DNA of 49,362 nucleotides from Candidatus Aenigmatarchaeota archaeon. Lineage in GTDB: Archaea; Aenigmatarchaeota; Aenigmatarchaeia; QMZP01. Of the stretch, positions 1 through 37,906 are shown piece after piece; the first letter of the stretch is position 1, and every line of letters starts with the position of its first letter. The position numbers were made by a program, and so were the translations under genes. Where the stretch lies: positions 13,267-62,628 of the forward strand of contig JAWCLA010000001.1 of NCBI GenBank assembly GCA_039091855.1, given 5' to 3'. Under the pieces are notes generated by a model. The model worked only from the letters and a program-made list of their open reading frames with translations. It made no database searches and was not told the origin of the DNA.

Positions 1-390
1 ATAAGCGGCATAGCCTTTGAGCAATACAGCGATGTTTTCCCAAAGGCAAAAGGGTCAACAGTAACTGTTTATTATGACTATGATGGGGACAACAACTATG
101 ATGGTTATATGACAGTTTCTGTGGGGCCAGAGCCTTCTGACATTTTTGACCCTGAAAATGATTCAATAGATGATTCCTTTATGCGGCTTATGGACTCAAT
201 AAACTTTATCTGGGATTCAAACCCAAACTCGTACGGAAACGGGACTGCTGAAAACCCTTATGATGGCATAAGCCCACAAAATCCTGTGGACCTTCAAATA
301 ACATCCGAGGTTGAATTTGAAAGCGTGACAGCATCCGAAATACCATCCCTTTGGGGACCTGCAATAATGGAGATAAGGATATGGTCATAA
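1..390 (+). CDS. surface/secreted protein, C-terminal fragment (5' end outside window)
   Basis: Frame 1 is open from base 1 to the stop at 388-390. Acidic, Asn/Ser/Pro-rich, no catalytic motif. Overlaps the next pilin-like gene by 10 nt, so likely the same operon. Confidence 0.4.
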   Translation: MSGIAFEQYSDVFPKAKGSTVTVYYDYDGDNNYDGYMTVSVGPEPSDIFDPENDSIDDSFMRLMDSINFIWDSNPNSYGNGTAENPYDGISPQNPVDLQITSEVEFESVTASEIPSLWGPAIMEIRIWS

Positions 391-7600: not shown

Positions 7601-9754
7601 ATGGGTCTTTTCCGAAAGAAGAAATCTGCAATAGACAGGGCGCAGTTCAGAAGGATTGTGATGAGCCAGCAGAGGCACAAGGTTTATCTGCCTCCATACA
7701 GGTCAAAACCGATTATTTCGTCGAGGGAATACAGGATTTTCAAGCAGATGGAAAAAAGAAGGCTGAACTGGTACGAAAGGCTTGCCAAATTTTCTGAAAA
7801 TATACTAACGGTAAAGCCAGGCAAAAGGACAGAAGAGGAGCTCGGAAGCCAGATAGCATTCACAGGGCTTAGGGTAACGCCTGCAAGCGTGATGTCACTT
7901 TTCGTTCTTACGCTTGTTGTTTTCATAGTGATTGGAACTGCATTTACAATAGCGCTTATTTCAAATCCTGTATATGGGCTTACCATAATAGCAATCGGCT
8001 TGGGGCTTTCTTATTATTTTTACAAGTATCCCGCAAACCTGGTGAAAAGGCTGAGAATGCAGGCAAGCTCAGAGGTGGTTTTGGCGATTCTTTATATGGT
8101 TGTTTCTATGAGAATATCTCCAAACCTGGAGAGGGCATTAAGGTTCGCTGCTGCAAACATATCAGGGGCGTTGGCATGGGATATGAGAAGGCTTCTTTGG
8201 GACATAGAGATGAGGAGATATTATTCTGCTTCAGACGCGCTTACAGATTATATAGCGAAATGGAAGCCGGAAAACGAGGAGTTTGCAGAATCTCTCAGGC
8301 TTATAAGGGACTCGGAAACGCAGGTTCCTGAAAGGGGTATGAAGATTTTGGATGAGGCTCTTGATGTCATTCTTGACGGCACAAAAACGAGAATGAAGCA
8401 TTATGCTCAGGAACTTAACCTGCCTGTAATGGTAATACATATGATGGGAATAGTGCTGCCTGTTTTGGGAACAATAATGGCGCCTCTTGCGGCTGTATTT
8501 ATGGCAGATGTTGTGTCTCCATTGTATTTCGTAATAGGGTATGACATAATTCTTCCTGTTGTTCTCATATGGTTCATAAACAATACGCTTAGCAAGAGAC
8601 CTGTCACATTTTCGCGTGTGGATATATCCAGGCATCCCAATATTCCACCAAAGGGCAAGTTCTGGATAGGAAAGGGTAAATCTATGCATGCCCTGCCAAT
8701 AGCAATTATAATTTTTCTCGCCTTCGTATTGCCTGCTGCATATTTCTTTTTGGAAAACCCAAAGCTAATTTCAATAGGTCTTACAGATACGGAAAGATGC
8801 ACCTTTTTTGGAAACTCTTATACAAAAGAGGATGGTGTTTGCCCTGGAATTTCTCTCGCTATGTCATTATTCATCATACTTGGTTTTGGAATAAGCCTTT
8901 CTGTTTACCTTATACTTTCTACATTTCAGACACTAAGGGTTCAGCAAGGTGTTGAGAGCATAGAGGGGCAGTTCGAGCTTGCCCTTTTCCAGCTTGGAAA
9001 CAGGATAAGGGGAGGGACACCTACAGAACTTGCAATGGAAAAGGCAATAGGTGATATGAAGGACATAGAGATATCCAACCTTTTCAGGATAGCACTGAGA
9101 AACATAAAAACGCTGGGAATGACGTTTGATGAGGCATTTTTCAACAGAAATTATGGGGCGTTAAGGTATTACCCATCACAGTTAATAAAGAACATAATGT
9201 ATGCAATTATTGACACATCAAAAAAAGGAGTTACATACGCATCTGAGGCTATGCTTAGGATTTCCCGATATCTGAAAAACATAAGGGAAACCCAGGAATA
9301 CATAAGGGAAATGCTTTCAGAAACCACATCATCAATGAAGTTCCAGGCTTACTTTTTGACTCCTTTGATAACAGGGCTGATAGTTTCTATGGCAGACGTT
9401 ATGATACAGGTTCTTGTTGCCCTTGGCAGTTATCTGAACTCTATTGCAGCGCCTGAAGGCGGTATTGCAGGAATGGACATATCAAAGCTATTTGCTGACA
9501 CAGAAAAGGTAATATCACCGTCCCTTTTCCAGTTAATAGTTGGCGTTTATGTTATAGAGGTTATAATAATACTCGGTATTTTCATGACAAAAATCAGCCA
9601 TGGCGAGAACAAGATACTTCAATGGAACATTGTCGGAAGGATGCTTCTTGTTGGAATGTTTATCTATTTCCTTGTGGCAATTATTTCGAGCACAATGTTT
9701 GGCGGACTCATAAGGGAGGCATTATCAGGAATTCTTGGTATGGAAACCCCTTAA
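7601..9754 (+). CDS. polytopic membrane protein with two T2SS-F (FlaJ/TadC/PilC-like) platform domains
   Basis: 717 aa with many TM helices. Two soluble helical segments (about aa 160-270 and 480-590) each precede TM bundles, as in pilus/archaellum platform proteins. Sits next to the pilus-like locus. Confidence 0.55.
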   Translation: MGLFRKKKSAIDRAQFRRIVMSQQRHKVYLPPYRSKPIISSREYRIFKQMEKRRLNWYERLAKFSENILTVKPGKRTEEELGSQIAFTGLRVTPASVMSLFVLTLVVFIVIGTAFTIALISNPVYGLTIIAIGLGLSYYFYKYPANLVKRLRMQASSEVVLAILYMVVSMRISPNLERALRFAAANISGALAWDMRRLLWDIEMRRYYSASDALTDYIAKWKPENEEFAESLRLIRDSETQVPERGMKILDEALDVILDGTKTRMKHYAQELNLPVMVIHMMGIVLPVLGTIMAPLAAVFMADVVSPLYFVIGYDIILPVVLIWFINNTLSKRPVTFSRVDISRHPNIPPKGKFWIGKGKSMHALPIAIIIFLAFVLPAAYFFLENPKLISIGLTDTERCTFFGNSYTKEDGVCPGISLAMSLFIILGFGISLSVYLILSTFQTLRVQQGVESIEGQFELALFQLGNRIRGGTPTELAMEKAIGDMKDIEISNLFRIALRNIKTLGMTFDEAFFNRNYGALRYYPSQLIKNIMYAIIDTSKKGVTYASEAMLRISRYLKNIRETQEYIREMLSETTSSMKFQAYFLTPLITGLIVSMADVMIQVLVALGSYLNSIAAPEGGIAGMDISKLFADTEKVISPSLFQLIVGVYVIEVIIILGIFMTKISHGENKILQWNIVGRMLLVGMFIYFLVAIISSTMFGGLIREALSGILGMETP

Positions 9755-14928: not shown

Positions 14929-15269
14929 GCCTCCGTAGCTCAGTTTGGATAGAGCGCCAGCCTTCTAACAAAGCCTTTTTTTCAAAAAAGGCTTTGGAAC
15001 CCAAAAAATTATCTGAACTATGCGAAAATTTAATATAAAAAGAGTGCAGGTTCCTAGTGTTAGAAGAAATGAGGGAAACAATAAATATGATTTCATAGGT
15101 TTTGGCAATTTCCCGATGATCGGAAGCAAGCTGGAAGTCGCGGGTTCAAACCCTGAGCCTTTCTTCCCGAAAGAAAGGCTAAGGTTCATCCAAAGAAAGG
15201 GAATTAATCGGTTAATTGATTAACTGTTAATATGAAGAGTGAACACAGGAGAAAATCCCGTCGGGGGCA
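14929..15269 (+). tRNA. tRNA-Arg(UCU) with two introns (about 161 nt at 37/38, about 105 nt in the T-loop at 59/60)
   Basis: Exons 14929-14967, 15129-15150 and 15256-15269 give 75 nt. Acceptor GCCTCCG/CGGGGGC, D arm GCTC-AGTTTGGATA-GAGC, anticodon arm CCAGC-CTTCTAA-GCTGG, T arm GCGGG-TTCAAAT-CCCGT. Intron 1 contains GTTAGAAG, complementary to the anticodon-loop junction CTTCTAAC. Confidence 0.8.
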
Positions 15270-15307: not shown

Positions 15308-16783
15308 ATGTCGGAGAAAAAAATTAAGAAGTTTTCAAGGAAAATCGCTCTTACTTTTGATGATGTCCTTCTTATACCTTCAAAGTCCGAAGTTCTCCCA
15401 AGGGATGTGAACACGGAAAGCTTTTTGACAAAAAGGATAAGGCTGAAAATACCTGTTCTTAGCGCAGCAATGGACACTGTTACGGAAAGCGAAATGGCGA
15501 TAGCAATGGCCAGGAACGGTGGGTTAGGGGTTATACACAGGAATATGAGCAGGGAGAGGCAGGCAGAAGAGGTTAAAAAGGTAAAAAAGTCAGAGAGCTG
15601 GATAATAGAAAACCCTGTTACAATTTCTCCCGATGACAACGTTGGAAAGGCTAAAGAATTGATGGAGATTAACAATGTTTCGGGGCTTCCTGTTATAGAT
15701 GGTGAAAGGCTTGTTGGGATAATCACCCAAAGGGACCTTCTTTTCAAAACAAATATGCTACAACCGATAAGAGATGTTATGACAAAGGAACTTATTACAG
15801 CTGACGAAAAAATATCTGTTGAGCAGGCTGTTGATATTCTTGACAGGCACAAGATAGAAAAGCTACTGATTACTGACAGACAGGGAAGATTGAAGGGAAT
15901 GATAACAGTAAAGGATATAATAAAGAGCAGGAAATTTCCTGATGCATCAAAGGACAAGGACGGAAGGCTTCTGGTTGGTGCTGCGACAGGACCTCTTGAT
16001 ATGAAAAGGGTGGAAATGCTGATGAATGCAGGTGCAGACGTTATCGTTATAGATACTGCCCACGGCCATTCTTCAAATGTGATAAACACAATAAAACAAA
16101 TCAAAAAGAGATGGGAAACTGAAGTTGTTGGAGGAAACATAGCGACATCAGAGGCAGCCGATGATTTGATATCAGCAGGTGCAGACGCTTTAAAGGTTGG
16201 TATAGGACCTGGTTCTATATGCACAACAAGGATTGTGGCGGGGGCAGGTGTACCGCAGATAACAGCAATACAGGATTGTGCAGAGGTTGCAGAAAGGTAT
16301 GGAATTCCTGTTATTGCTGACGGGGGAATAAAGTATTCGGGTGATATAGCGAAGGCTGTAGCAGCTGGTGCAAACTGTGTTATGATAGGCTCAATTTTTG
16401 CAGGCACAGAGGAATCTCCTGGAAGGGTTGTTTTTGTAAGAGGCAGGAAATACAAGAGTTACAGGGGAATGGGCTCAGTTGGAGCAATGCAGGAAGGCTC
16501 TGACAGGTATGGCTCACAGGAAAAGGGAAAGTTCGTTCCAGAGGGTGTGGAAGGAATAGTGCCTTACAGGGGAACTGTCTCCGAAATGCTTTTCCAGCTT
16601 GTCGGAGGATTGAGGTCTGCGATGGGATATTGTGGGTGCAAAACAATAGAGGAATTGAGAAAAAACTCAAGGTTTGTGAGAATAACAAAGGCAGGTTTAA
16701 GGGAATCGCACCCACATGATATAACAATTACTGCTGAGTCACCCAACTATTGGAGCGAAGGCGAGGAAAAAGAAGATAAGTAA
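15308..16783 (+). CDS. guaB: IMP dehydrogenase
   Basis: LTFDDVLLIPS N-terminus, tandem CBS insert, catalytic loop GIGPGSICTTR, GGIKYSGDI, and C-terminal GYCG. Confidence 0.95.
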   Translation: MSEKKIKKFSRKIALTFDDVLLIPSKSEVLPRDVNTESFLTKRIRLKIPVLSAAMDTVTESEMAIAMARNGGLGVIHRNMSRERQAEEVKKVKKSESWIIENPVTISPDDNVGKAKELMEINNVSGLPVIDGERLVGIITQRDLLFKTNMLQPIRDVMTKELITADEKISVEQAVDILDRHKIEKLLITDRQGRLKGMITVKDIIKSRKFPDASKDKDGRLLVGAATGPLDMKRVEMLMNAGADVIVIDTAHGHSSNVINTIKQIKKRWETEVVGGNIATSEAADDLISAGADALKVGIGPGSICTTRIVAGAGVPQITAIQDCAEVAERYGIPVIADGGIKYSGDIAKAVAAGANCVMIGSIFAGTEESPGRVVFVRGRKYKSYRGMGSVGAMQEGSDRYGSQEKGKFVPEGVEGIVPYRGTVSEMLFQLVGGLRSAMGYCGCKTIEELRKNSRFVRITKAGLRESHPHDITITAESPNYWSEGEEKEDK

Positions 16784-16911
16784 TTGTTATAAAATTTGAG
16801 TAGAGAATGGAGAATTCACGCTTTTATTTACTTCCAGAGTTAATTGAAAGCCAAAAAATATAAATAAGCTAGTTCAACTACTTAACAGGTGAAATTCTAG
16901 TTGAAAAACCT

Positions 16912-17922
16912 ATGAAAGTGGCATTTACCTTTAACCAGAAGAAAGAAGCTGATTCTGACGAGCCTCCGGATGAACAGGCCGAATTCGATTTACCGGAAAC
17001 AATAAACTCAATAAAGTCTGCACTTGAGGCGCTGGGTCACGAAGTTATTATGATAGAGGCAGATGAAAATTCATTTTTTAAGCTCAAGGAATCGTCTCCT
17101 GACATTGTTTTTAACATAGCGGAAGGCAAGAAGGGTGAGTCAAGGGAATCACAGATTCCTATATTTTGTGAGATGTTGGGAATCCCTTATACAGGCTCTG
17201 GTCCTCTCACCCTTGCAATAGCCCTTAACAAGGCAAGAACAAAAGAAATACTATCTTTTTATGGGATACCGACTCCTAGGTTTCAGGTTTTCCAAACTTC
17301 AAACGAACCGCTTAATGAAAAGCTAAAATTTCCTCTTATGGTAAAGCCACTATCAGAAGGCTCGAGCAAGGGAATAAAAAACGATTCGCTTGTGAGGAAT
17401 GAGGTAGAATTGAGGAGAAAGCTGGAAGAGGTTATAAAAAATTACAGGCAACCTGCATTGGTTGAGGAGTTTCTCGAAGGGAGGGAGTTCACTGTTTCGC
17501 TTATAGGAAACAGTGAGCCAGAAATACTTCCTATAGTTGAAGTTTGTTTTGATTCTCTTCCAGAAGGCATTAACAAGTTTGATTCGTATGAGGTTAAGTG
17601 GGTTTATGACAGCCCTGACAGTGGGTATGAAATGGTGAAATGCCCTGCGAAAATACCAAAGAAACTTGAGGAAAAAATAAAGAAGGTTTGTGTTGATGCT
17701 TACAGGGTTTTGGGCTGCAGGGATTTTTGCAGAATAGACATAAGGCTGGATTCAGAAGGAAACCCAAATGTTTTGGATGTAAATCCTCTTCCCGGACTTA
17801 TACCTGACCCCAAAGAGAATTCGAGGTTTCCGAAATCCTGCTATGCAGCAGGTATGAGCTATAAACAAATAATAAAGCGCGTTCTTGAAGAAGGACTAAA
17901 AAGATACGGGATGCTATCATGA
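16912..17922 (+). CDS. ATP-grasp enzyme, D-alanine--D-alanine ligase-like family
   Basis: FPLMVKPLSEGSSKGI, ALVEEFLEGREFTVSLIG, CRDFCRIDIRLD ... VLDVNPLPGL. Short N-domain. Confidence 0.8.
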   Translation: MKVAFTFNQKKEADSDEPPDEQAEFDLPETINSIKSALEALGHEVIMIEADENSFFKLKESSPDIVFNIAEGKKGESRESQIPIFCEMLGIPYTGSGPLTLAIALNKARTKEILSFYGIPTPRFQVFQTSNEPLNEKLKFPLMVKPLSEGSSKGIKNDSLVRNEVELRRKLEEVIKNYRQPALVEEFLEGREFTVSLIGNSEPEILPIVEVCFDSLPEGINKFDSYEVKWVYDSPDSGYEMVKCPAKIPKKLEEKIKKVCVDAYRVLGCRDFCRIDIRLDSEGNPNVLDVNPLPGLIPDPKENSRFPKSCYAAGMSYKQIIKRVLEEGLKRYGMLS

Positions 17923-18983
17923 AAAGGCTTAGGATAGGCATAGTGTTTGACAGTGGAGAGTTTTCCTGTAAAAGCAGCTATGACTCCATATCGGACAAAG
18001 GAGTTATGGAGGAAGTTGCTGCTGTTAAAAAATCCCTTGAAAATCTTGGATACAGGGCAATTCTGATACCAATAGGAAGGGGGATTTCAAAAAAATATGT
18101 AAAAAAAATTCAATCAGAAGCAATAAGGAAAAAGGTAATATCCAAACTGCGATCTGAGTTGAGAAAGGCAAAAACAGATTTAGTTTTCAACCTTTGTGAA
18201 ACCTTTTTTGGAGATCCAAAACTCCAATCTATTATTCCAAGAATTCTTGATGAGATGAAAATTCCATACACGGGTTCGCCATGGCATTCAATAGAGATGA
18301 CCACTGACAAAAGTCTAACAAAAAAAGTTCTGGAAGAGAGGGGAATACCTACCCCCAGGTTCAAGATTTTCTTTCCGGGAGATGAGATATCTGCATTTGG
18401 TTTGAGGTTCCCTCTCATAGTAAAGCCAAACTTCGAAGATGGCAGCGTAGGAATCGAGAAAGATTCTGTTGTTTACGGTCAGGAAGAACTGGTAAAAAAG
18501 GTTTTGGAGGTTATGAAAAAATACGATCAACCTGTATTAGTTGAGGAATATATAGATGGAAGGGAGCTAAATGTCGCCGTTTTCATTAACAATGGTTCTT
18601 CAGAAGTTCTTCCTATATCAGAGATAGTTTTTAATTATCCTGATGATGTTCCAAAAATAACAAGCTATTCTGCAAAGTGGATAGAGAACAGCGAAGAATA
18701 CAAAAAAAGTGTCGGCATCTGCCCGTGTGAGCTTCCAATTGAGCTGGAAGAAAAGATCAAAATGATAGCAAGCGAGTGTGTGAAGGCTTCTGGATGCAGG
18801 GACTATGCAAGGGTTGACATAAGGCTTGACAGGAACAACCAGCCTTATGTCATAGAGGTCAATGCGAACCCTGACATATCTCCAAAGGCAGGTTTTATGA
18901 GGTCATTTTTGGCATCAGGCAGGAGTTATGAAGACTTTGTCAGGGGCTTGGTGAAATTTACACTTCAGAGAAAATCAAATTAA
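17919..18983 (+). CDS. ATP-grasp enzyme, Ddl-like family (paralog of upstream gene)
   Basis: FPLIVKPNFEDGSVGI, VLVEEYIDGRELNVAVF, CRDYARVDIRLD ... VIEVNANPD. 4-nt overlap with the upstream gene. Confidence 0.8.
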   Translation: MKRLRIGIVFDSGEFSCKSSYDSISDKGVMEEVAAVKKSLENLGYRAILIPIGRGISKKYVKKIQSEAIRKKVISKLRSELRKAKTDLVFNLCETFFGDPKLQSIIPRILDEMKIPYTGSPWHSIEMTTDKSLTKKVLEERGIPTPRFKIFFPGDEISAFGLRFPLIVKPNFEDGSVGIEKDSVVYGQEELVKKVLEVMKKYDQPVLVEEYIDGRELNVAVFINNGSSEVLPISEIVFNYPDDVPKITSYSAKWIENSEEYKKSVGICPCELPIELEEKIKMIASECVKASGCRDYARVDIRLDRNNQPYVIEVNANPDISPKAGFMRSFLASGRSYEDFVRGLVKFTLQRKSN

Positions 18984-18988
18984 AAATA

Positions 18989-19408
18989 TCATAGATAGTA
19001 TTTCCTGAAAGCTTTATGGAACGAGTCCTCGTCTCTCAAATCAAATATTTTGTACATAAATTTCTCTAATTTCTTTATGGAAAGTTTGGATGAAAATAGA
19101 TATTCCATTCTTTCTTTGGTGTTTGCTTTATTGAAGGCAATGTCACAAAATTCCTTAAAGTCAGTTAAGGAAAAATCAAAATCTTCTTTTTGTGGCTTGA
19201 AGTTAAGAAAAAAGACTGCACGATTGTAATAAGGTTTTATTATGGAAACATACCAATTTGATTCCTCTAATGCAATTACTGAATAATCGTTTTCGTTAAT
19301 GAAACCAAAAAATTCGGTAGAGTTGTTTTTCGCTTTGTATTTAAGATCCGATCTACTAAAAAACCTATTTTTTGAAAACAAAGGCACAAAACTATGAATT
19401 TTGTCCAT
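18989..19408 (-). CDS. hypothetical protein (AT-rich orphan downstream of aIF2-gamma)
   Basis: 139-aa ORF, Lys/Phe/Asn-rich, no motif recognised. Sits 34 nt downstream of the aIF2-gamma stop on the same strand. Confidence 0.45.
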   Translation of the reverse strand: MDKIHSFVPLFSKNRFFSRSDLKYKAKNNSTEFFGFINENDYSVIALEESNWYVSIIKPYYNRAVFFLNFKPQKEDFDFSLTDFKEFCDIAFNKANTKERMEYLFSSKLSIKKLEKFMYKIFDLRDEDSFHKAFRKYYL

Positions 19409-19442
19409 TATATCACGAAGGGATTAAGTTCATTTTTGATTT

Positions 19443-20753
19443 TTATACCTCAATGATCCCCCATCCTATAAGCCTCCACCTTCCTATGACTTGGCGGGAG
19501 ATTGCAACCTTCTCTCCTTTTTCGGCACAAACAGGTATTTTAAGGTCAACTTGAATTCTTCCGGACTTTATAGAACTCACAATCCCTACTGTCCTTGCTG
19601 TGCCTACTGTAATCATAAGCTGGTCATTTGTTTTAAGTGGCTCTACCTTTAGCTCTTCTTTAGAGCCTACAACCCTATCAAGAAGGTTTACAGAAATGGT
19701 AAGTTGATATGCTGGTTTTGGTAATTTTCCTGGAATTCCTACAACAGTTCCTGTGAGGTTGTCAGATTTTGCCCAATAAGGGTCAAGCTCTGTTGATATT
19801 CCCACAAGGCCTCCTGGTCCTGCTGACTCAACATCCATCATTGCCTGCTGTATTCCCATTACCTTTGTTGTTATTGGCTGAAACCTGTCCTTCACCTTTA
19901 TTCCGGGAGAAAGCTCAATCAAATCTCCTTTGTGAACCTCTCCCTCTATTATTGAGCCTCCAATAACAGCACCCTTTAGTTTATCAATAGGTGTTCCAGG
20001 CTTGTTTACATCAAACGACCTTGCAACAAGCATTTTGAGAGGCTTCTTTGGGTCCCTTTTTGGTGTAGGAATGGTTTTCTCTATTGCCTCTATAAGGGCG
20101 TCTATGTTTATTCCCTGCCTTGCGGATACCGGTATTATTGGTGCATTTTCGGCAATAGTTCCTTTTATAAAATCCTTTATCTGTTGGTAATTCTTAAGTG
20201 CCTGCTCCTCTGTAGCAAGGTCTATCTTGTTCTGCACAACAACTATGTTTTTTATTCCAACTATTTCAAGCGCTTTCAAATGTTCCCTTGTCTGCGGTTG
20301 CGGGCAGGGCTCTATTGCAGAAACGAGAAGAAGAGCACCATCCATAAGGGATGCCCCTGAAAGAACAGTCGCCATAAGGGTCTCGTGCCCCGGTGCATCA
20401 ACAAAGGAAACTGTTCTTAGTGGAATGCAATCGGAAAAGCACTTGGGGCATTTTTTGGCTGTTGAATATTGTTCATACCCCTTGCATTTCGGGCATTTGT
20501 AAAAAGTTGCCTCAGCATACCCAAGCCTTATTGTTATGCCCCTTTTTATCTCTTCTGAATGCGTGTCTGTCCACTTTCCTGTCAATGCCTCTGTGAGGCT
20601 TGTCTTTCCGTGATCAACGTGTCCCACAAGACCTATGCTTACCTCTGGAATGAGCGGCTTTATCTCAACTTTATTGATGCGCCTTGTCTTTTCTATTGCA
20701 AACCTGTCCTTTTCTACTTGCCTTTTCTTTTCTTTTCTTTCGACCTCAATCAC
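19443..20753 (-). CDS. eif2g: translation initiation factor aIF-2 gamma subunit
   Basis: GTPase motifs GHVDHGKTS, DAPGHE, QNKIDL. Zn-knuckle CPKCKG ... CPKC insert typical of a/eIF2 gamma. Confidence 0.95.
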   Translation of the reverse strand: MIEVERKEKKRQVEKDRFAIEKTRRINKVEIKPLIPEVSIGLVGHVDHGKTSLTEALTGKWTDTHSEEIKRGITIRLGYAEATFYKCPKCKGYEQYSTAKKCPKCFSDCIPLRTVSFVDAPGHETLMATVLSGASLMDGALLLVSAIEPCPQPQTREHLKALEIVGIKNIVVVQNKIDLATEEQALKNYQQIKDFIKGTIAENAPIIPVSARQGINIDALIEAIEKTIPTPKRDPKKPLKMLVARSFDVNKPGTPIDKLKGAVIGGSIIEGEVHKGDLIELSPGIKVKDRFQPITTKVMGIQQAMMDVESAGPGGLVGISTELDPYWAKSDNLTGTVVGIPGKLPKPAYQLTISVNLLDRVVGSKEELKVEPLKTNDQLMITVGTARTVGIVSSIKSGRIQVDLKIPVCAEKGEKVAISRQVIGRWRLIGWGIIEV

Positions 20754-20862: not shown

Positions 20863-21055
20863 GGGCCCATAGCTCAGTCTGGTTTGAATTTGAAGCAATA
20901 TATAGCTTCTCTTCCGGAAAGAGCGCTCGGCTCTTATCGCTTTGTTAACGGCGTTCGCCGCTAATGATTGGGTGAGACCGAGAAGTCGAGGGTTCGAAGG
21001 CGCAAGGTTAATGATTGGAAACTGTCTTTTAGTTACGAAAATCCCTCTGGGCCCA
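20863..21055 (+). tRNA. tRNA-Lys(CUU) with three introns (D-loop about 36 nt, 37/38 about 40 nt, T-loop 59/60 about 43 nt)
   Basis: Exons 20863-20883, 20920-20936, 20977-20998 and 21042-21055 give 74 nt. Acceptor GGGCCCA/TGGGCCC, D arm GCTC-AGTCTGGTA-GAGC, anticodon arm CTCGG-CTCTTAA-CCGAG, T arm GAGGG-TTCGAAT-CCCTC. All stems are perfect. Confidence 0.8.
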
Positions 21056-24081: not shown

Positions 24082-24501
24082 ATGCCTGTCCAGACTTTTA
24101 CAATCAAGGTGAAATCCTCGCCTGAAACCGACGTGATAGACATCACACAAGACTTAATAAAGGCTGTTTCCTCCTCAAAAATAAGGAATGGTATTGTTAC
24201 CGTTTTTGTGCCTGGATCAACTGCCTCTGTGAGCACTATAGAATTCGAGCCGAATCTCGTAAAGGACTTCAAGGAAGCGATAGAAAGGATCGTGCCTTCC
24301 AACATTAAGTACAGGCACAGGGAGACGTGGGGTGATGACAACGGAAAGTCTCACATAAGGGCAACGCTTATGGGACCTTCCATAACCATACCTTTCAGGG
24401 AAAAAAAGCTTCTTCTTGGAACCTGGCAACAGGTTGTGGTGATAGATTTTGACGTTCCTGCAAGAACAAGGGATGTCATAATACAGGTTATGGGAGAATA
24501 A
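24082..24501 (+). CDS. YjbQ/UPF0047 family protein (secondary thiamine-phosphate synthase-like)
   Basis: 139 aa. VFVPGSTASVSTIEFEP, DNGKSHIRATLMGPS, LGTWQQVVVIDFD are typical UPF0047 blocks. Confidence 0.75.
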   Translation: MPVQTFTIKVKSSPETDVIDITQDLIKAVSSSKIRNGIVTVFVPGSTASVSTIEFEPNLVKDFKEAIERIVPSNIKYRHRETWGDDNGKSHIRATLMGPSITIPFREKKLLLGTWQQVVVIDFDVPARTRDVIIQVMGE

Positions 24502-24503
24502 AA

Positions 24504-24731
24504 GGCAGCTATCTGGCCTTCCCTCCTGGTTCCGGCAAGAAAGCCCAACAATGGTTGGGCATCCAAGCTGTCGGAAGTACAAGCCAGACCGTAGGGGGTC
24601 TTAACTTCCGTGTTCGGATTTCCCCACCCCTTTCTTTTTACGTTTTTTGCTCCACCGCTTTTTGAAGAAGCGGTAAGCTCTCGTAAAAAAGCGGTGTATG
24701 GGAACGGGTGAACACCCCCGCTTTGGCCGCC
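24504..24731 (-). rRNA. 5S rRNA, abnormally long (about 228 nt)
   Basis: Minus strand reads GGCGGCCAAAGCGGGGGTGTTCACCCGTTCCCAT[79 nt]TCCGAACACGGAAGTTAAGACCCCCTACGGTCTGGCTTGTACT...CCGGAACCAGGAGGGAAGGCCAGATAGCTGCC. Helix I is GGCGGC/GCTGCC. TATA-like TTATATAAA lies about 29 nt upstream (24757-24765). A T-run follows the 3' end. Confidence 0.7.
24619..24697 (-). other. about 79-nt insertion (intron or expansion segment) in loop C of the 5S rRNA gene
   Basis: It interrupts the otherwise contiguous conserved CCCAT|TCCGAAC. Internally, CACCGCTTTTT pairs with AAAAAGCGGTG (11 bp). It contains AAAGAAAGGGG, resembling a motif in the tRNA T-loop introns. Boundaries are good to plus or minus 2 nt. Confidence 0.6.
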
Positions 24732-24774
24732 ATTAGTCTAATAATTGAATGTAACATTTATATAAGTTTCTTGC

Positions 24775-31178: not shown

Positions 31179-34100
31179 ATGGAAGAGCGGGCGGGATGGA
31201 TATTGTTAATTTTGGCGTTTGTTTTATTAGTAGCGCAAACAGGAGCCGCAACCGAATATGCACCATCTACTTGCATAATACAGAGGTCTACAATTCAGGG
31301 ACATGATATTGTTTACTATGAAACAATAAATTGCAAAATAGATAAAATTTCATATGATGATGAATCAACTGTCTATGTTAGCGGCCTGGGATATATCTTT
31401 ACTTCTTGGAATGGTCTCCCTTCTTCAGTAGGCTCTATTTCCCTGACAATTAAAATGCGCTGTCGTTCACTTGTTTATAATGATTGTAAAAAATTACTTG
31501 GATGTGAAGGCATTGATGGCGAAGAAGTAAATTATAAGAAATATTATCTTGAGTTAATAAGTGATTGCACATCAGATTTGGGGTTTTTGAACCCTGACAC
31601 ACAGATAATTGTTTCGAATGGTGTGAATTCAAAGGAAATAGCCACTGTTGCCGTGACAAACGATTATTCATATTACACTTATGATTTAACAAACATATTA
31701 AAGCCCGCATCTGGATATTATTCCGTAACGATAAATAACAATAAAAAATATGTAACAGGTTCTGGCAGTAGATATGTATTCAAAACCATTTATATAGATT
31801 TAGTCAAATTGGAAGCAGAACCATGTCAATGCTCATCAGGAATATGTTGTGACGGCTGTAACTACAAGCCTTCAGGCACTGCTTGTGGAGCATCTACCTG
31901 CCCTTCTGATTACTATTACCAAAACAGCGGAAACTGCTACAAGGCAGATTACCCAGAATCCTGCACAAAAACCTGCGACAGTTCTGGAAACTGCCAGGAT
32001 TGCTGCAATCCCGTGATTTCATTAAATAACTGGAGCTGCAATCCCTTGTGTCAAAAACCAGACTATACAAGTTCATGTACAGGCCAAACACCGCCAAAAT
32101 GCATAAACTTACCTTCAACCACAACATGTGGTACAAACATATGCAGTTCAAATAACGGGTATGTTCAAAGTTCAGGAAATTGCTATTATAGGGTATATAA
32201 TGACTGCACAAAATACTGCAGCAACGGTATCTGCCAGGACTGCGCTTGCACATACACAGATTATCCCCAAAGCTGGGATTGTGGAATATGCAAAGAAAAG
32301 GACTACTCATCCTGTGCATTAACAACAGGACCGTTGTGCAAGAACTCAGCTCCAGGAACGCCTTGCACGATTTCAGGCCAGCAGGGAAAATGTGACGGAT
32401 ACGGAAACTGCACAGTTCCGCCATCTCTTTCTGTTTCTGCAACCCTTTCTTCATCCTCGATAAAGGCAGGTGAAACCACAATGCTCAAAGGAGAGATAAT
32501 TTGCTCTAACGCAAACTGTGGTTATGTTTATGTGCACGCAAAAAACACATCAGGTTCACCGATAAACCAGATTCCCGGGCTTTCAGTGCAAGGAACAAAT
32601 CCTTACACTTGCGGCTATATGGGTTCAGGGCAAAAATGCTATCCCAATTGGACAATAACAGGAATGTCAGCAGGAACGTACCCTCTTTACCTGATAGCAA
32701 CAAACGGAACACTGATCAACACATCATCTATAGTCACTCTTAACGTAACAGAAATACCTTCGGGCAGTTTGTCCATTTCAGGATTAACGCCTGTTACTAC
32801 GACTGTTGGAATCCCTGTGACAATAAGCGCAAATATTTTATGTTCTGGAATTTCGGGCTCATATTGTGGAAATGTGACCTCCTACCTCTATTACAATTCA
32901 TCCTCTTCAAGTTGGGTTTTGATGGGCCCATCAGGAAGCCTCTACACGACTTCCAATAATCCGCAAAGGCCAACTTCCTGCAGCAATCTCTGGTCAGGAC
33001 AGTCCTGCCCTGTTTACTGGACTGTAAACAGCACAAAGACAGGAACATACCACATAAATATGGTTGCCGATTCCGACAGCCCAAAGGTTGATAACTCAAG
33101 CCATTCAGTCCAGCTTGTTGTAAAGGAAAAGCCTGTTGGTGTTATTTCAATAGAGAGCCTTGGTCTTAATCCTGCCCAGATAAAGACAGGGGAGGAAACT
33201 AATTTAAGTGCGGTTATAAAATGTCTCTCTTCGGACAGCATAACAACTGTATCCTGTGGAAAGGTAAATGCATATACAAGACACAACGGCACAAAAATAG
33301 AGGTTTCAGGCCCTTTGGCAACACAAATCCCAGAAAGGGAATGCGGGACAATGGGTTCGGGTGGAACCTGCAATGTTATATGGAGCATAAAAGGAAACTC
33401 CGTAGGAACATACCTGGTTGACATTTTAGCTTACTCTGACTCTGCTGAAGTCCAGGACAAGACATCTGAAACCAAAACCCTTTCCGTTATAAAGAATATT
33501 GGCACTCTTTCAATACCAAGATTATATGCAACTCCTCCTGAAATAAACATCACAAACACAACAACAATTTCCGTGACAGTCAACTGCTCAACAAGCTATT
33601 GTGGAAACATCAATCTAACGCTCTCTGTTCCATCAGGACTTGTATTTGAAGGCGCAAGCCAGCAGTACTGCCTTTCCTTCCCTTGTAACCTGAACTTTAC
33701 TCTAAGGGGAATCTCCGAAGGCTCCTTTACAGTTTCCCTTGAGGCAAAATCAAATGAGTCAATACCAACAGCAACAAATTCCACATCAATTGTTGTCAAG
33801 GGCCCAAACCCGCTTTTAAGTCTAACCATAACCATACCAAACTCTGCAACTTTGTTTGAACCTGTTCAGGCAAAGACAACAGTTTACTGCCACGTGAAAA
33901 ACTGCGGCAACACCAAAACAGCAATCGCTTACAAAACAACGGAAGGATGGAAAGAGATATCCTATTCAGGCGATGTTCACATTTCAAACCAGCAGCAAAA
34001 TCCAATTTCAACAGAGATGTTCGTAAACCAGTCAAAGGAAATAGTCTGGGAGCTGAACTTTACCAAGACAGGAATTTATGAGATTATGGTTTATGCAAAC

Positions 34101-35783
34101 GGTTCTGATCCTGGGGTCGTAAATGCAACTTACATTACTTTAATAAATGCATCCCCTGTCAGCAGGATTTCAATAGAAATCCTTTCCCCAAACGATGGGG
34201 AGACATTCTCTCTTGGGGAAACCGTTTTCCTTAAGTCAAGAATTACCAAAGGCGGCAATCCTTTGATAGGAATCAAGCCATTTGTTTCACTTTCTTCCTT
34301 TTTGGGAGCAGAACTTTTCGATGACGGCAAGCACAATGACAGCCTGAATGATGATGGAATTTATGGTGGAGAGATTAAGCTGTTGCTTGAAGGCATAAGG
34401 GAAAGGAAGCCCCAATACCTTGCGTTCAGGGCAGGAGATTCGGAAGAAAAGATTTACATATATATCGATCCTTCGCTTTCAGTAACACTAAAAACCGACA
34501 AGTATTCATATGAATGGGGAGAGAACATAACAATATACGGAGAGGTTAAAAGAAAGGATAAAGAAACAAGCTCAGACATTCAGGCATATCTCGAATGCGG
34601 CGGATGGACAGGGCAGGCAAACTCATTTTCCAGCGAAAACGGCTCTTACTTGATAAACTATCAGAACATCTATATGCCCCCATTTTCCGACTGCAACTTA
34701 AGCATACAAATTTTGGCAAAGGACAATTACGAAAACTTCGGCAATGCTATAAAAGAGGTTTTAGTGAAGGCATACAAGGGAGATTTGTATTCCTTATCTT
34801 TCAGTATGGAAAGATACAATTACAGCAGAATGGAAAACATTCCGATAAGGGCAACCGTGAGTTATCTGGGTTCAACTCAAACCAATGCAAATGTAAAATG
34901 CAGCTTTTTAGGAAAGGAAATAACCCTTACCGAAAAAAATGGCGAATATATAGGTTATTATGAAATACCCTTTGACGCTCCTCTTAAGGAAGAAACACTG
35001 AGCTGCTCTGCTTCAGGACCCAAATCAGAAAAGCCCGGACCAGGTAGCACGAAAATAAAGATAGAACCAGTTCCCATTCAGCTATCAATAGTAAGCCCCA
35101 AGCTTTTGCCAAACAACATTATTTACGTGTTTTCAGAAAATATGGTAGCCCTTGTCGTAAATGCAACCTATCCTGACAAAAAACCCGTGCTTGGTGCTGA
35201 AATTCACATAACAATAAATAACCAGACAGTCAAGCTTAAGCATATGGGAAACGGCACATACACAACCGATGAAGGCTGGTTCACAGGCTCTGGTGTTACT
35301 GAGATGTTTTTGTCAGCGCAGGACGCTTACGGAAACAATGGCAATAACAACATAACACTTGTTGTAAACCCAAGCCAGTTCAATTGGTGGTGGCTGCTTC
35401 TGATACCAGCGGGTTTGGCAATTCTGTTTTTCCTATGGTATTATGTTAAATCCAAGGAGCAGCCAAAAGTTCAGATACAGGAGAAAATCATAAGGCTTCC
35501 TGTTACGGAAAGAGTGAGGGAGATTGTTTACAAGCCAATAAGGGTTCCCTCACAACAAAAAATTGACCCGATTACAAAATTGAGAAGGGAGATAGCAGAG
35601 CTTGAGGAAAGGTCAAACACAGTTAATCGCGCAAAGGACATTGCAGAGCAGCAGTATTACAAGAGGCAGATAGACGAGCAGACATTCAACAACCTTATGC
35701 AAAGATATGAGGAGAAGCTTATAGAGATTGACGCCGCAATAAGGGAGAAAAGGAAAAAACTCCGTGAAATGGGAGCTGTGTGA
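31179..35783 (+). CDS. giant (1534 aa) surface protein: signal peptide, tandem Cys-rich modules, about 5 Ig/CARDB-like repeats, C-terminal TM and coiled-coil cytoplasmic tail
   Basis: N-terminal WILLILAFVLLVAQTGAA. Cys-rich region about 31824-32415. Repeated blocks of the form xxxCGxVxxY...G...C...W(T/S)(I/V)...GTYxxxxxA. TM WWWLLLIPAGLAILFFLWYYV (about 35386-35448). Then a roughly 110-aa charged heptad-like tail. Many N-x-S/T sequons. Confidence 0.8.
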   Translation: MEERAGWILLILAFVLLVAQTGAATEYAPSTCIIQRSTIQGHDIVYYETINCKIDKISYDDESTVYVSGLGYIFTSWNGLPSSVGSISLTIKMRCRSLVYNDCKKLLGCEGIDGEEVNYKKYYLELISDCTSDLGFLNPDTQIIVSNGVNSKEIATVAVTNDYSYYTYDLTNILKPASGYYSVTINNNKKYVTGSGSRYVFKTIYIDLVKLEAEPCQCSSGICCDGCNYKPSGTACGASTCPSDYYYQNSGNCYKADYPESCTKTCDSSGNCQDCCNPVISLNNWSCNPLCQKPDYTSSCTGQTPPKCINLPSTTTCGTNICSSNNGYVQSSGNCYYRVYNDCTKYCSNGICQDCACTYTDYPQSWDCGICKEKDYSSCALTTGPLCKNSAPGTPCTISGQQGKCDGYGNCTVPPSLSVSATLSSSSIKAGETTMLKGEIICSNANCGYVYVHAKNTSGSPINQIPGLSVQGTNPYTCGYMGSGQKCYPNWTITGMSAGTYPLYLIATNGTLINTSSIVTLNVTEIPSGSLSISGLTPVTTTVGIPVTISANILCSGISGSYCGNVTSYLYYNSSSSSWVLMGPSGSLYTTSNNPQRPTSCSNLWSGQSCPVYWTVNSTKTGTYHINMVADSDSPKVDNSSHSVQLVVKEKPVGVISIESLGLNPAQIKTGEETNLSAVIKCLSSDSITTVSCGKVNAYTRHNGTKIEVSGPLATQIPERECGTMGSGGTCNVIWSIKGNSVGTYLVDILAYSDSAEVQDKTSETKTLSVIKNIGTLSIPRLYATPPEINITNTTTISVTVNCSTSYCGNINLTLSVPSGLVFEGASQQYCLSFPCNLNFTLRGISEGSFTVSLEAKSNESIPTATNSTSIVVKGPNPLLSLTITIPNSATLFEPVQAKTTVYCHVKNCGNTKTAIAYKTTEGWKEISYSGDVHISNQQQNPISTEMFVNQSKEIVWELNFTKTGIYEIMVYANGSDPGVVNATYITLINASPVSRISIEILSPNDGETFSLGETVFLKSRITKGGNPLIGIKPFVSLSSFLGAELFDDGKHNDSLNDDGIYGGEIKLLLEGIRERKPQYLAFRAGDSEEKIYIYIDPSLSVTLKTDKYSYEWGENITIYGEVKRKDKETSSDIQAYLECGGWTGQANSFSSENGSYLINYQNIYMPPFSDCNLSIQILAKDNYENFGNAIKEVLVKAYKGDLYSLSFSMERYNYSRMENIPIRATVSYLGSTQTNANVKCSFLGKEITLTEKNGEYIGYYEIPFDAPLKEETLSCSASGPKSEKPGPGSTKIKIEPVPIQLSIVSPKLLPNNIIYVFSENMVALVVNATYPDKKPVLGAEIHITINNQTVKLKHMGNGTYTTDEGWFTGSGVTEMFLSAQDAYGNNGNNNITLVVNPSQFNWWWLLLIPAGLAILFFLWYYVKSKEQPKVQIQEKIIRLPVTERVREIVYKPIRVPSQQKIDPITKLRREIAELEERSNTVNRAKDIAEQQYYKRQIDEQTFNNLMQRYEEKLIEIDAAIREKRKKLREMGAV

Positions 35784-37440: not shown

Positions 37441-37676
37441 TGGGGTCGCTGGGATTCCCATTTTATGCACAATAAGCCGTATTATCAGCCTCTTGCGTAA
37501 ATCCCTTTCTTTGGGATAATCCCTACACCTTTCTTTCGGGAAAGAAAGGGGTTGGGCTTTGAACCCAGATGAGCCGGTTTCGCCTCTTCACTGCTTTGCA
37601 AGCAAAGCTCATATTTCCAAACGCAAGCGCTAAGCGCTGTCTGGAGCCGGCCAGGTTGCCGTTGCCTCACGACCCC
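37441..37676 (-). tRNA. tRNA-Trp(CCA) with two introns (about 62 nt at 37/38, about 103 nt in the T-loop at 59/60)
   Basis: Exons 37676-37641, 37578-37558 and 37454-37441 give 71 nt. Acceptor GGGGTCG/CGACCCC, anticodon arm GCCGG-CTCCAGA-CCGGC, T arm CTGGG-TTCAAAT-CCCAG, D arm AGGC-AACGGCA-ACCT with one mismatch. Confidence 0.75.
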
Positions 37677-37679
37677 TAA

Positions 37680-37906
37680 AGCCCCGGGCGCGGCTTTCAA
37701 ATAAAGAGGCTTTATTTATCCGTTATTAGCCGCCAATCTTTATTGAACGCGCGACCTCCCCATTACCAGCGGGGTGCTCTCTATCGGCTCCTTTTCTGCA
37801 GGCGGTTTCTCCCTGAAGGCCGTCGTTTTGAAGGGGTTTTGCTCTACGGCCTTTTGGATGAAGCCAGCAGGCTCGAAAAGGCCGTAACCGACTGAGCTAC
37901 CGAGGC
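37680..37906 (-). tRNA. tRNA-Thr(GGU) with two introns (about 106 nt in the D-loop, about 48 nt in the T-loop near 59/60)
   Basis: Exons 37906-37887, 37780-37742 and 37693-37680 give 73 nt. Acceptor GCCTCGG/CCGGGGC, D arm GCTC-AGTCGGTA-GAGC, anticodon arm CCCCG-CTGGTAA-TGGGG, T arm GCGCG-TTCAATC-CGCGC. Only 3 nt separate it from tRNA-Trp. Confidence 0.75.

Follow-up and report, generated by a model that had tools for sequence, protein, structure and literature searches.

Putative bulge-helix-bulge introns in the 5S rRNA gene of a DPANN archaeon

The window analyzed here, a stretch of 49,362 nucleotides, carries on its minus strand a 5S rRNA gene of about twice the normal length, which is due to two short insertions in loops C and D. 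The question raised by this locus is whether the additional sequence stays in the mature rRNA or is removed from its precursor. The original prediction took a retained expansion of the Halococcus type as its lead comparison and flagged a spliced intron as more unusual still. We find the first option less likely given the exact absence of the insertions in relatives, their core-complementary 3' ends and their bulge-helix-bulge (BHB) termini, and the comparative sequence evidence favors splicing for both insertions rather than for the loop C insertion alone. Our preferred reading, which we consider probable, is that the gene contains two putative BHB introns that would be removed by the tRNA splicing endonuclease and a ligase, leaving a 5S rRNA of ~110 nt.

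A 5S rRNA gene of nearly double length

The precursor body of 230 nt spans positions 24504-24733 (minus strand), as supported by the Rfam alignment, the predicted fold, an identical copy in a second assembly (GCA_038999105.1, L003) and the alignment with relatives. The last of these defines the gene limits, and the actual 5' end could be 1-2 nt upstream of the limit given here. A TATA box, CTTATATAAA (24757-24766, minus strand), is centered ~28 nt upstream of the 5' end, and a TTTATAA/CTTATAAA box was found at the same distance from the 5S gene in all seven relatives. The probable terminator is a T-run immediately past helix I (TTTT, 24500-24503, minus strand), which is extended to TTTTTT in L003. 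The stand-alone gene with its TATA box and T-run had thus been recognized correctly, as had the origin of its near-double length in a loop C insertion plus extra sequence in the helix IV/loop D region.

Three exons were delineated on the minus strand. Exon 1 (24698-24733, 36 nt) includes the 5' strands of helices I, II and III and loop C up to CCCAU, and exon 2 (24570-24618, 49 nt) the remaining part of loop C, the 3' strands of helices III and II, the 5' strand of helix V, loop E and the 5' strand of helix IV. Exon 3 (24504-24528, 25 nt) provides the 3' strand of helix IV (GGAGG), the GAA of loop E and the 3' strands of helices V and I. The Rfam check that had been proposed gave a divided answer. 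In a local scan RF00001 (5S_rRNA) aligned to the gene end to end, with an 81-nt block left unaligned after CCCAUA, but the score of 26.6 bits falls below the gathering score of 38 bits, and a search of the whole window at the gathering threshold returned no 5S match. Among the relatives, genes with one insertion scored 41-56 bits and an insert-free gene (L034) 65.4 bits, while the two-insert gene of L029 was missed. The low score of the window gene is caused by its insertions and not by its core.

The minimum free energy (MFE) fold of positions 24500-24736 (minus strand) recovers helices I, II and V at -97.5 kcal/mol (z = -5.3, with none of 200 shuffles reaching this value). When the insertions were spliced out in silico, the alignment of eight genes showed 95.2% of cells paired and 8 pairs with compensatory change, which was matched by none of 500 shuffled alignments; slid controls had 29-56% of cells paired. 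The spliced alignment displays the three-way junction, helices I-V, loop C as CCAUNCC and loop E as GUA/GAA, with covariation. The 5S exons are under structural selection.

These results bear on the possibility that the window gene is a decaying or unexpressed copy and that the ribosome obtains its 5S rRNA from a canonical gene located elsewhere in the genome. Two 5S genes have been reported in some Aenigmarchaeota genome bins (PMC8407114). We nevertheless regard this pseudogene explanation as highly improbable: neither the promoter nor the T-run nor any exon helix is damaged, the changes between relatives are compensatory, and the same gene occurs unchanged in the second assembly. The 5S gene lies within ~2.5 kb of the aIF2-gamma gene in six of the seven relatives, including the insert-free one. 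A second canonical 5S gene had been named in advance as evidence that would speak against the original prediction; a search of the 49-kb window with a cutoff as loose as E <= 1 gave no further 5S signal. Finally, the ends of the insertions are conserved and their interiors diverged, a pattern that decay would not yield.

The two insertions and their distribution among relatives

The first insertion, putative intron 1, occupies 79 nt of loop C at positions 24619-24697 (minus strand), exactly as predicted. In the predicted fold of this insertion, its 5' CACC(GC) pairs with its own 3' end, and the partner of AAAAAGCGGUG is an internal repeat, UACCGCUUCUU. The 11-bp internal helix proposed earlier, CACCGCTTTTT/AAAAAGCGGTG, is present as sequence (24696-24686 and 24663-24653), but according to this fold the pairing is probably not used. 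The second insertion, putative intron 2, had been described as a helix IV hairpin about 20 nt longer than usual. The extra sequence is real, but comparison with insert-free relatives resolves it into a discrete 41-nt insertion in loop D (24529-24569, minus strand), with the noted GCCCAAC/GTTGGGC hairpin at 24560-24554 and 24549-24543. A 21-nt "intron" candidate within the second insertion was rejected, as its removal would disrupt the 7-bp hairpin and no canonical loop would result.

Related genes were sought in several collections. A pattern scan of 185,579 species genomes (the window not among them) for 5S genes with a 60-90-nt gap in loop C found no true relative, its two matches being bacterial tandem or partial 5S duplications. 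The same kind of scan in metagenomes gave 16 matches, one of them a true relative (L016) and the other 15 bacterial duplications or oddities. Gene callers place a spurious 101-aa ORF over the L016 5S gene; a search for relatives via this ORF returned only L026, a one-SNP variant. Two scans of viral contigs detected no relatives. Synteny around Kae1 was shared by L003 alone, the assembly with 99% identity, and no 5S gene was found near Kae1 in the 78% relatives L004-L009. Altogether, the comparison set consists of seven related 5S genes, which with the window gene make eight distinct genes from a single DPANN clade, probably Aenigmatarchaeota. The aIF2-gamma proteins are 77-89% identical within the clade, with L016 as the outgroup.

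The comparison with relatives, which had been suggested as a check, revealed every combination of insertions. Both are present in the window and L029, intron 1 only in L030, L032 and L016, intron 2 only in L027 and L031, and neither in L034, whose 5S gene is 109 nt long. The loop C insertions of the relatives measure 80 nt (L030), 60 nt (L029), 61 nt (L032) and 86 nt (L016), and the loop D insertions 44 nt (L029 and L031) and 36 nt (L027). Where the loop C insertion is missing (L027, L031, L034), the loop reads CCCAUUUCGAAC or CCCGUUCCGAAC; where the loop D insertion is missing, helix IV is closed as CUUCC-UUCG-GGAGG in L030 and as CUUCC-GAAA-GGAGG in L032 and L034.

This distribution is relevant to the rival proposal that neither insertion is removed and that both extend the mature 5S rRNA as solvent-exposed helices, one on helix III/loop C and the other on helix IV/loop D. 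For insertions, positions 34-37 of loop C have been described as the least obstructed site, and several Clostridia have long unbranched helices there (PMC7812874). Both insertions form stable hairpins, and the MFE fold of the window gene retains helix IV with the second insertion stacked on top of it. Identity within an intron family is 93-98% (40-66% between families), a level to be expected of functional rRNA that could mean a function in the mature molecule. Against retention, the insertions are precisely missing in close relatives with canonical loops (CCCAUUUCGAAC, or a GAAA or UUCG tetraloop), which shows that they can be dispensed with and have been lost exactly. Furthermore, intron 1 of the window is more conserved than the flanking exons when compared with L030: the insertions are 96% identical, whereas the exons differ at 14 of 110 positions (87% identity) and the third codon positions of aIF2-gamma are just 40% identical. 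The distribution of the insertions is also incongruent with the aIF2-gamma tree. Taken with the features of the insert ends described below, these observations make retention unlikely in our estimate.

BHB motifs and predicted splicing products

In the archaeal BHB motif, two 3-nt bulges on opposite strands are separated by a 4-bp helix (hBHBh'), and the relaxed forms HBh' and hBH are also accepted (PMC5829648). The proposed check for BHB folding at the junctions was positive for both insertions of the window. All nine insertions found in the eight genes have this geometry at their ends, with a 4-bp helix formed between exon and insertion and flanked by two 3-nt bulges. Intron 2 conforms to the strict motif and intron 1 to the relaxed HBh' motif.

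For intron 1, the 5' half of the motif (24693-24703, minus strand) consists of helix H UCCC (24703-24700), the bulge AU↓A (24699-24697; the arrow marks the predicted cut) and h' CACC (24696-24693), and the 3' half (24618-24628, minus strand) of h' GGUG (24628-24625), H GGGA (24624-24621) and the bulge AA↓U (24620-24618). The outer helix is missing, and the motif is therefore of the relaxed HBh' form. In all five loop C insertions H is UCCC/GGGA with 4/4 pairs, the bulges are AU↓A(G) and AA↓U, h' has 3-12 bp and h has none. For intron 2, the 5' half (24567-24577, minus strand) comprises h CU (24577-24576), H UCCG (24575-24572), the bulge AC↓A (24571-24569) and h' GC (24568-24567), and the 3' half (24526-24536, minus strand) h' GC (24536-24535), H CGGA (24534-24531), the bulge AC↓C (24530-24528) and h AG (24527-24526). 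All four loop D insertions share H UCCG/CGGA (4/4 pairs), the two 3-nt bulges, h of 2 bp and h' of 1-2 bp; the strict hBHBh' form (h 2, H 4/4, h' 2) occurs in the window, L029 and L031, and h' is 1 bp in L027.

Cutting after the second nucleotide of each bulge predicts the products CCCAU↓UUCGAAC and CUUCC-GAAA-GGAGG, which are the exact insert-free alleles of L027, L034 and L032. The predicted spliced RNAs thus coincide with natural insert-free alleles and fit the 5S fold. In the window the predicted exon-exon junctions are GUUCCCAU↓UCCGAAC and CUUCCGAC↓CAGGAGG. The same cutting rule applied to seven tRNA introns regenerates the sequence of the intron-free tRNA-Lys orthologue.

Shuffled insertions placed a BHB-type motif at the correct position in 0.5%, 2.5% and 2.6% of trials. 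Without a fixed position HBh'-like motifs are frequent by chance (~40 per 250 nt in an unrestricted scan), so that such a scan is uninformative unless the position is fixed. Since H and the bulges are invariant among the insertions, the support comes from conservation and not from covariation; only h' covaries (CACC/GGUG versus CGC/GCG). A target-site duplication was considered as the source of the terminal pairing. It was rejected for intron 1, where UCCC and GGGA are complementary and not repeats, and it is weakly possible for intron 2, where CCGAAA resembles CCGGAAA. No UGAUGA box of the C/D-box sRNA type was seen in the insertions by eye, and Pfam scans of 45 ORFs found neither EndA nor RtcB genes in the window.

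The same ends are difficult to reconcile with retention in the mature rRNA. Their conserved 3' termini, GGGAAA and CCGGAA, are complementary to the core and would compete with helices III and IV. Described 5S expansions are without complementarity to the core (PMC7812874), whereas here GGGA and CGGA pair with core UCCC and UCCG in place of purely internal pairing. In a retained fold CGGAAC would be a conserved yet unpaired internal loop, and the retention of the 4-bp helix with its two 3-nt bulges in nine of nine insertions would have to be accounted for, as would the recurrence of insert modules within bona fide tRNA introns.

Some features count against splicing. The outer helix of intron 1 is absent in five of five genes, and its 3' splice site lies inside a 9-nt loop. 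Such relaxed motifs are not cleaved by every EndA. The BHB conformer of intron 2 is 4.5-8 kcal/mol less stable than folds that retain helix IV. In favor of splicing, the BHB conformer of intron 1 is the unconstrained MFE structure in L030 and L032 and lies 0.9 kcal/mol above the MFE in L016.

On our preferred reading, that of two spliced introns, a precursor of ~230 nt would be transcribed from its own TATA promoter. The intron 3' ends would pair with the four exon nucleotides upstream of the 5' junctions (UCCC:GGGA and UCCG:CGGA), which would displace the upper end of helix III along with a portion of helix IV and leave each junction in a 3-nt bulge. EndA would cleave after the second nucleotide of every bulge, and RtcB would ligate the three exons and probably circularize the introns. 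In the product, loop C would again read CCAUUCC, and helix IV (CUUCC/GGAGG) would be closed by a loop of 5 nt. Cleavage, ligation and the absence of the insertions from mature 5S rRNA are all inferred from sequence comparison.

The BHB evidence applies equally to a gene product that is cleaved and not rejoined, in which one or both insertions would be excised and the 5S rRNA would function in two or three pieces that helices I-V keep together. As each cut would fall within a hairpin loop, the helices on either side could keep the pieces in place, and excision without religation is among the fates suggested for rRNA insertions (PMC7812874). We consider this outcome very unlikely. Normally, RtcB rejoins the BHB cleavage products of archaeal tRNAs and rRNAs (PMC4496867). 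In this genome, tRNAs whose genes have as many as three introns could not function without religation, and after the loop C cut helix III would be held by 6-7 bp alone.

Shared modules with tRNA introns and comparison with known systems

The host genome depends on the splicing of comparable introns. A tRNA-Lys(CUU) gene of 193 nt (20863-21055, plus strand) has three introns (20885-20919, 20937-20976 and 20999-21041), located in the D-loop, the anticodon loop and the T-loop. Their central helices have 4/4, 3/4 and 4/4 pairs, with h or h' down to 0-1, and the mature tRNA of 75 nt is identical to the intron-free L030/L034 orthologue except for one nucleotide. The orthologous genes of the relatives have zero, one or two introns, and the BHB motifs of the two- and three-intron genes are no better than those of the 5S genes. 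The organism must therefore splice relaxed BHB introns at non-canonical positions. ARAGORN and Rfam reported no tRNA in the 49-kb window and missed this gene. The window holds at least one clear three-intron tRNA gene and several further candidates; a tRNA-Trp candidate (37544-37678) with a poor acceptor stem and no convincing BHB motif was not used as a control.

Sequence modules link the tRNA and 5S introns. The inner hairpin of intron 1 together with GAGCAAAAA matches the start of a T-loop intron in an L026 tRNA at 20 of 20 positions (E = 1e-5; 31 of 33 over the aligned region). The 3' module of intron 2, CUUUCUUGCCGGAA, is also found in the D-loop intron of the window tRNA-Lys. The module TTCYYKCCGGAA has six occurrences in 170 kb versus ~0.16 expected: four in 5S intron 2, one in the D-loop intron of the window tRNA-Lys and one just upstream of an L029 tRNA. 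Similar modules thus recur across genes and sites in a manner incongruent with the host tree, although it is modules and not whole introns that are common. The 5S introns probably come from a stock of small hairpin introns also present in the tRNA genes of the clade, and would have been gained and lost, or exchanged, between close relatives. We lean toward the view that introns, up to two per gene, are seen here for the first time in a 5S rRNA gene, and that they stem from a set of mobile BHB mini-introns shuttling between tRNA genes and an rRNA gene in this DPANN lineage. A literature search over the full text of about 8 million papers found no earlier report of a 5S rRNA intron.

5S is alone among the universal rRNAs in that we found no report of an intron, and its gene would be a new host for introns. 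A three-exon 5S gene, if spliced, would widen the known substrates of the archaeal splicing machinery and, combining a strict and a relaxed motif within 230 nt, would offer a compact natural substrate for DPANN splicing endonucleases. The four insert states and the tRNA-intron modules could help to address the gain, loss and movement of archaeal introns. If the interpretation is true, 5S and tRNA genes of such genomes would be systematically overlooked or scored too low by models blind to introns, and "missing" 5S or tRNA genes in DPANN bins, together with the quality scores that depend on them, may in part be intron artefacts.

Three known systems resemble this locus. The first is the 5S expansion segments, which likewise nearly double the gene length by helical insertions, one of them in loop C, and make standard 5S models miss or under-score the gene, as seen for the window. 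In Halococcus morrhuae a 108-nt insertion adjoins loop E and is retained in the mature RNA and the ribosome (Stepanov and Fox 2021, PMC7812874; Tirumalai et al. 2020, PMC7530397), and in bacteria loop C is known to accommodate retained 5S expansions (PMC7812874). In contrast to the Halococcus and Clostridia expansions, the insert ends in the window pair with the core in BHB geometry, and the 5S insertions come and go precisely between close relatives.

The second system is the BHB introns of archaeal 16S and 23S rRNA genes, known from Thermoproteales, Desulfurococcales and Aigarchaeota, some of which are short (<50 nt) and consist of a hairpin only (Jay and Inskeep 2015, PMC4496867). Both groups are small non-coding hairpin insertions in an rRNA gene, with conserved junction nucleotides that form a bulge-helix-bulge, a sporadic occurrence among relatives, and expected removal by the tRNA splicing endonuclease and RtcB. 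The present introns differ in that the host gene is 5S rRNA and the host lineage is DPANN and not Thermoproteota. They also have no homing-endonuclease ORF, and none lies nearby to co-convert the site; intron 1 differs further in its relaxed motif without an outer helix.

The third comparison is with multiple and non-canonical tRNA introns. The same genomes have tRNAs with up to three introns (D-, anticodon and T-loop) and the same relaxed BHB variants. Certain types of archaeal EndA cleave relaxed HBh' and BHL motifs, and an association between DPANN EndAs and disrupted tRNA genes has been noted (PMC5829648). In Thermoproteales, introns have been described to transpose from one tRNA gene to another (Fujishima et al. 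2010, as reviewed in PMC4090602). As in that case, modules are common to different sites and genes; unlike in that case, the modules found here connect tRNA introns with the putative introns of 5S rRNA.

An interrupted 5S rRNA gene and its relatives

The 5S rRNA gene at 24504-24733 (-) contains two extra sequence blocks, which we favor interpreting as bulge-helix-bulge (BHB) introns whose splicing is proposed from sequence alone. At gathering thresholds Rfam gave no match in the whole window; in a local scan RF00001 aligned end to end with only 26.6 bits (gathering score 38), skipping 81 nt in loop C after CCCAUA. At -97.5 kcal/mol (z = -5.3) the folded 5S strand is far more stable than its shuffled versions, and among the helices predicted are 5S helix I (GGCGGC/GCUGCC), helix II and helix V. 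The sequence CTTATATAAA lies upstream at 24766-24757 (-), centered ~28 nt away, and a T-run directly follows helix I. Exons, promoter and neighborhood are intact, which makes a dead gene copy highly improbable. The gene recurs, identical and with the same surroundings, in a second assembly, GCA_038999105.1.

Genes near the 5S gene are archaeal (aIF2-gamma, Kae1, an AlaX-like protein, a pilus-type ATPase and membrane proteins), the named homologs closest to Kae1 and aIF2-gamma belong to bins of Candidatus Aenigmarchaeota/Aenigmatarchaeota, and window G+C is ~40%. This setting points to a DPANN archaeon as the host. Elsewhere in the window, a 1534-aa ORF at 31179-35783 (+) had no Pfam match at E <= 1e-4, and sizeable ORFs without a Pfam family occur at 351-1586, 1627-2364, 2412-3038, 7601-9754 and 42779-43636.

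Kae1 synteny gave no relatives past GCA_038999105.1. Species genomes and metagenomes were also scanned by pattern; nearly all matches were bacterial tandem 5S artefacts, the one true relative being L016, a metagenome outgroup contig with aIF2-gamma near its 5S gene. Contigs with aIF2-gamma 79-85% identical to that of the window were looked up and their 5S located by motif, yielding six further distinct 5S genes. Loop C inserts are found in the window (79 nt), L029 (60 nt), L030 (80 nt), L032 (61 nt) and L016 (86 nt) but not in L027, L031 and L034, while loop D inserts occur in the window (41 nt), L029 (44 nt), L027 (36 nt) and L031 (44 nt) and are missing from L030, L032, L016 and L034. The insert-free L034 gene (109 nt) scores 65.4 bits with the Rfam 5S model and genes with one insert 41-56 bits, except L016; at the gathering threshold the model misses L029 (two inserts) and L016 (one insert).

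The original prediction placed the loop C interruption at 24619-24697, and these limits proved exact. It also regarded helix IV as extended. Insert-free alleles have an ordinary loop C (CCCAUUUCGAAC) and an ordinary helix IV/loop D (CUUCC-GAAA-GGAGG or CUUCC-UUCG-GGAGG), and the apparent extension is therefore a discrete 41-nt loop D insert, 24569-24529.

A block of IMPDH, two D-Ala-D-Ala-ligase-like ATP-grasp genes and aIF2-gamma is kept across the clade (window 15308-20753 compared with relatives L027-L035). These relatives have the 5S gene and tRNA-Lys within 0.5-2.5 kb on the upstream side of aIF2-gamma. The window differs in that tRNA-Lys and the 5S gene are separated by four genes, those for a Na/Ca exchanger, an AlaX-like protein, Kae1 and YjbQ. 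Four other metagenome contigs (L014, L019, L023 and L024; G+C 0.63) carry an identical, bacterial-looking 5S-like sequence in which ~37 nt separate CCCATTCC and CCGAACACGGAAGTTAAG and the 3' half is unlike 5S; this may be a degenerate 5S or a chimera, or else a loop C insertion of a different kind.

BHB geometry of the insert ends

BHB folding at the junctions had been raised in the original prediction, and BHB-type ends were found at all inserts analyzed (five in loop C, four in loop D). In every loop C case exon UCCC pairs with GGGA at the insert 3' end (4/4 pairs), with a 3-nt bulge AU↓A or AU↓G directly 3' of UCCC and AA↓U following GGGA (arrows mark the cut). A helix of 3-12 bp joins both insert ends (CACC/GGUG in four genes, CGC/GCG in L016); these inserts have no outer helix (h) and so represent the relaxed HBh' form. 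All four loop D inserts combine UCCG:CGGA (4/4 pairs) with two 3-nt bulges, an h of 2 bp and an inner helix (h') of 1-2 bp; three have the strict hBHBh' form, the exception being L027, with an h' of just 1 bp.

Predicted cutting after bulge nucleotide 2 restores the intron-free tRNA-Lys ortholog from seven tRNA introns. Applied to the 5S inserts, the same rule yields ...CCCAU↓U(U/C)CGAAC... and CUUCC-GAAA-GGAGG, the exact natural insert-free alleles, and CUUCC-GACCA-GGAGG for the window loop D. At such sites the tRNA splicing endonuclease EndA would cut and RtcB would ligate, the ordinary archaeal mechanism; excision with the exons left unligated appears quite unlikely.

BHB-like motifs are common if their position is unconstrained, but when inserts are shuffled the motif turns up at the fixed position in only 0.5-2.6% of trials. 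For intron 1 (loop C), unconstrained folding of L030 and L032 yields the BHB conformer as the minimum-free-energy structure, and the intron 2 (loop D) conformer costs 4.5-8 kcal/mol more than folds retaining helix IV. Covariation at the insert ends is confined to h'; since the central 4-bp helix (H) and the bulges are invariant, the BHB case stands on conservation, geometry and context.

Joined together, the exons amount to a functional 5S: the eight sequences in predicted spliced form are 109-110 nt long, with a mean column identity of 92%. The 5S fold is 95.2% paired across their alignment and has eight pairs changed on both sides, a result that beats 500/500 shuffles and every slid control. 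Helix IV CUUCC/GGAGG is present in all genes of the aIF2-gamma clade, and L016 retains the helix with a different sequence. In insert-bearing genes its 5' strand can therefore pair with either of two conserved partners, an exonic one or one within the insert, but not with both at once, which is exactly what a BHB intron requires. Retained expansion segments, for which this duality has no reason, are an unlikely alternative: loop C is already known as a permissive site, and 5S inserts that have not been tested may be retained or excised (Stepanov & Fox, PMC7812874), but retention does not explain the complementarity of exon and insert, bulges fixed at 3 nt, the precise losses among relatives or the tRNA-intron modules within the inserts.

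Interrupted tRNA genes and shared sequence modules

A tRNA-Lys(CUU) gene at 20863-21055 (+; 193 nt), undetected by ARAGORN at default settings and by Rfam, has three interruptions: a D-loop intron (20885-20919, 35 nt), an anticodon-loop intron (20937-20976, 40 nt) and a T-loop intron (20999-21041, 43 nt), all on the plus strand. Its exons (75 nt) match the intron-free L030/L034 ortholog, one base apart; orthologs among relatives have 0, 1 or 2 introns. In BHB quality these introns do not surpass the 5S inserts (H 4/4, 3/4 and 4/4; h or h' as low as 0-1); splicing of relaxed motifs at non-canonical sites is therefore a necessity for this organism. This need agrees with the extra loop reported for DPANN endonucleases and associated with tRNA gene disruption (PMC5829648).

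Sequence modules are common to 5S and tRNA introns. The T-loop intron of a tRNA in L026, a one-SNP variant of L016, begins with sequence matching the inner hairpin of window intron 1 together with GAGCAAAAA (20/20 exact, E = 1e-5; 31/33 aligned). For the intron 2 3' module TTCYYKCCGGAA, 170 kb of sequence contain six copies, versus ~0.16 expected: four in 5S intron 2, one in the window tRNA-Lys D-loop intron and one just upstream of an L029 tRNA. The L027 intron 2 hairpin GGAAGGCGAC..GUCGCCUUC resembles tRNA-Lys intron hairpins of L031 and L032. Downstream of tRNA-Lys in L031 (~615-665), a terminator-like hairpin GGAAGGCGACAAGTCGCCTTCTTTCTTTC matches the L027 5S intron 2 core at 26/27 positions. 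This same GAAGGCG..CGCCTTC hairpin recurs in L004 (a 78% Kae1 relative) and elsewhere, and so may be a dispersed small repeat.

Further tRNA-like sequences were observed. At ~14929-15170 (+), a sequence detected by no tool begins with GCCTCCGTAGCTCAGTTTGGATAGAGCGCCAGCCTTCTAA, has the anticodon loop CUUCUAA and, after a ~170 nt interruption, a T-arm-like GCGGGTTCAAACCC; this is probably one more tRNA gene with extensive interruptions. At ~37690-37906 (-) lies a tRNA-Thr(GGU)-like gene with several interruptions and paired acceptor strands (GCCUCGG/CCGGGGC). Directly after it, a tRNA-Trp(CCA) candidate at 37544-37678 (-), with a 62 nt anticodon-loop insert, was matched by ARAGORN at relaxed settings only, and its acceptor stem and BHB are unconvincing. 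The L026 tRNA gene, ~3700-3945 (+), is interrupted by a long stretch after its anticodon stem and by another within the T-loop, and a repeated GGAGCC...ACGGCUUCC element is present in both introns. In L029, an intron-type hairpin module GGUUGAAGGCGG...CCGCCUUCUCUCCGGAA at ~6120-6181 (-) stops two bases 5' of the tRNA gene GGGCCCAUAGCUCAG...; a BHB-processed leader is one possibility, a split or permuted tRNA arrangement another. Orthologous tRNA genes in L030, ~6040-6244 (-), and L032, ~290-468 (-), of ~190-210 nt, start with GGGCCCATAGCTCAGCCTGGTAGAGCA, end with GGGGGTTCGAATCCCCCTGGGCTCA and enclose >100 nt of interrupting sequence; they are further multi-intron tRNAs of the clade.

Evolution of the inserts and comparison with known introns

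Intron 1 is 96% identical between the window and L030 and 98% between L029 and L032; intron 2 is 93% identical between L029 and L031. The host genes are far more diverged, the window and L030 differing at 14/110 exon positions and being 40% identical at aIF2-gamma third codon positions. Between insert families the ends alone align (overall identity 40-66%), and families and presence states are incongruent with the aIF2-gamma tree. No homing-endonuclease ORF was found within the inserts. The pattern is consistent with exchange or recent spread, together with precise loss, and is like the tRNA intron transposition described in Thermoproteales (PMC4090602).

A literature search for "5S rRNA intron" and like phrases found no report, an absence of evidence within the literature searched only. 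The nearest precedents are short hairpin BHB introns in Thermoproteales 16S rRNA genes (PMC4496867). The novelty lies in the host, a 5S rRNA gene with two putative introns, in the DPANN lineage and in sequences that link tRNA introns with those of an rRNA gene.
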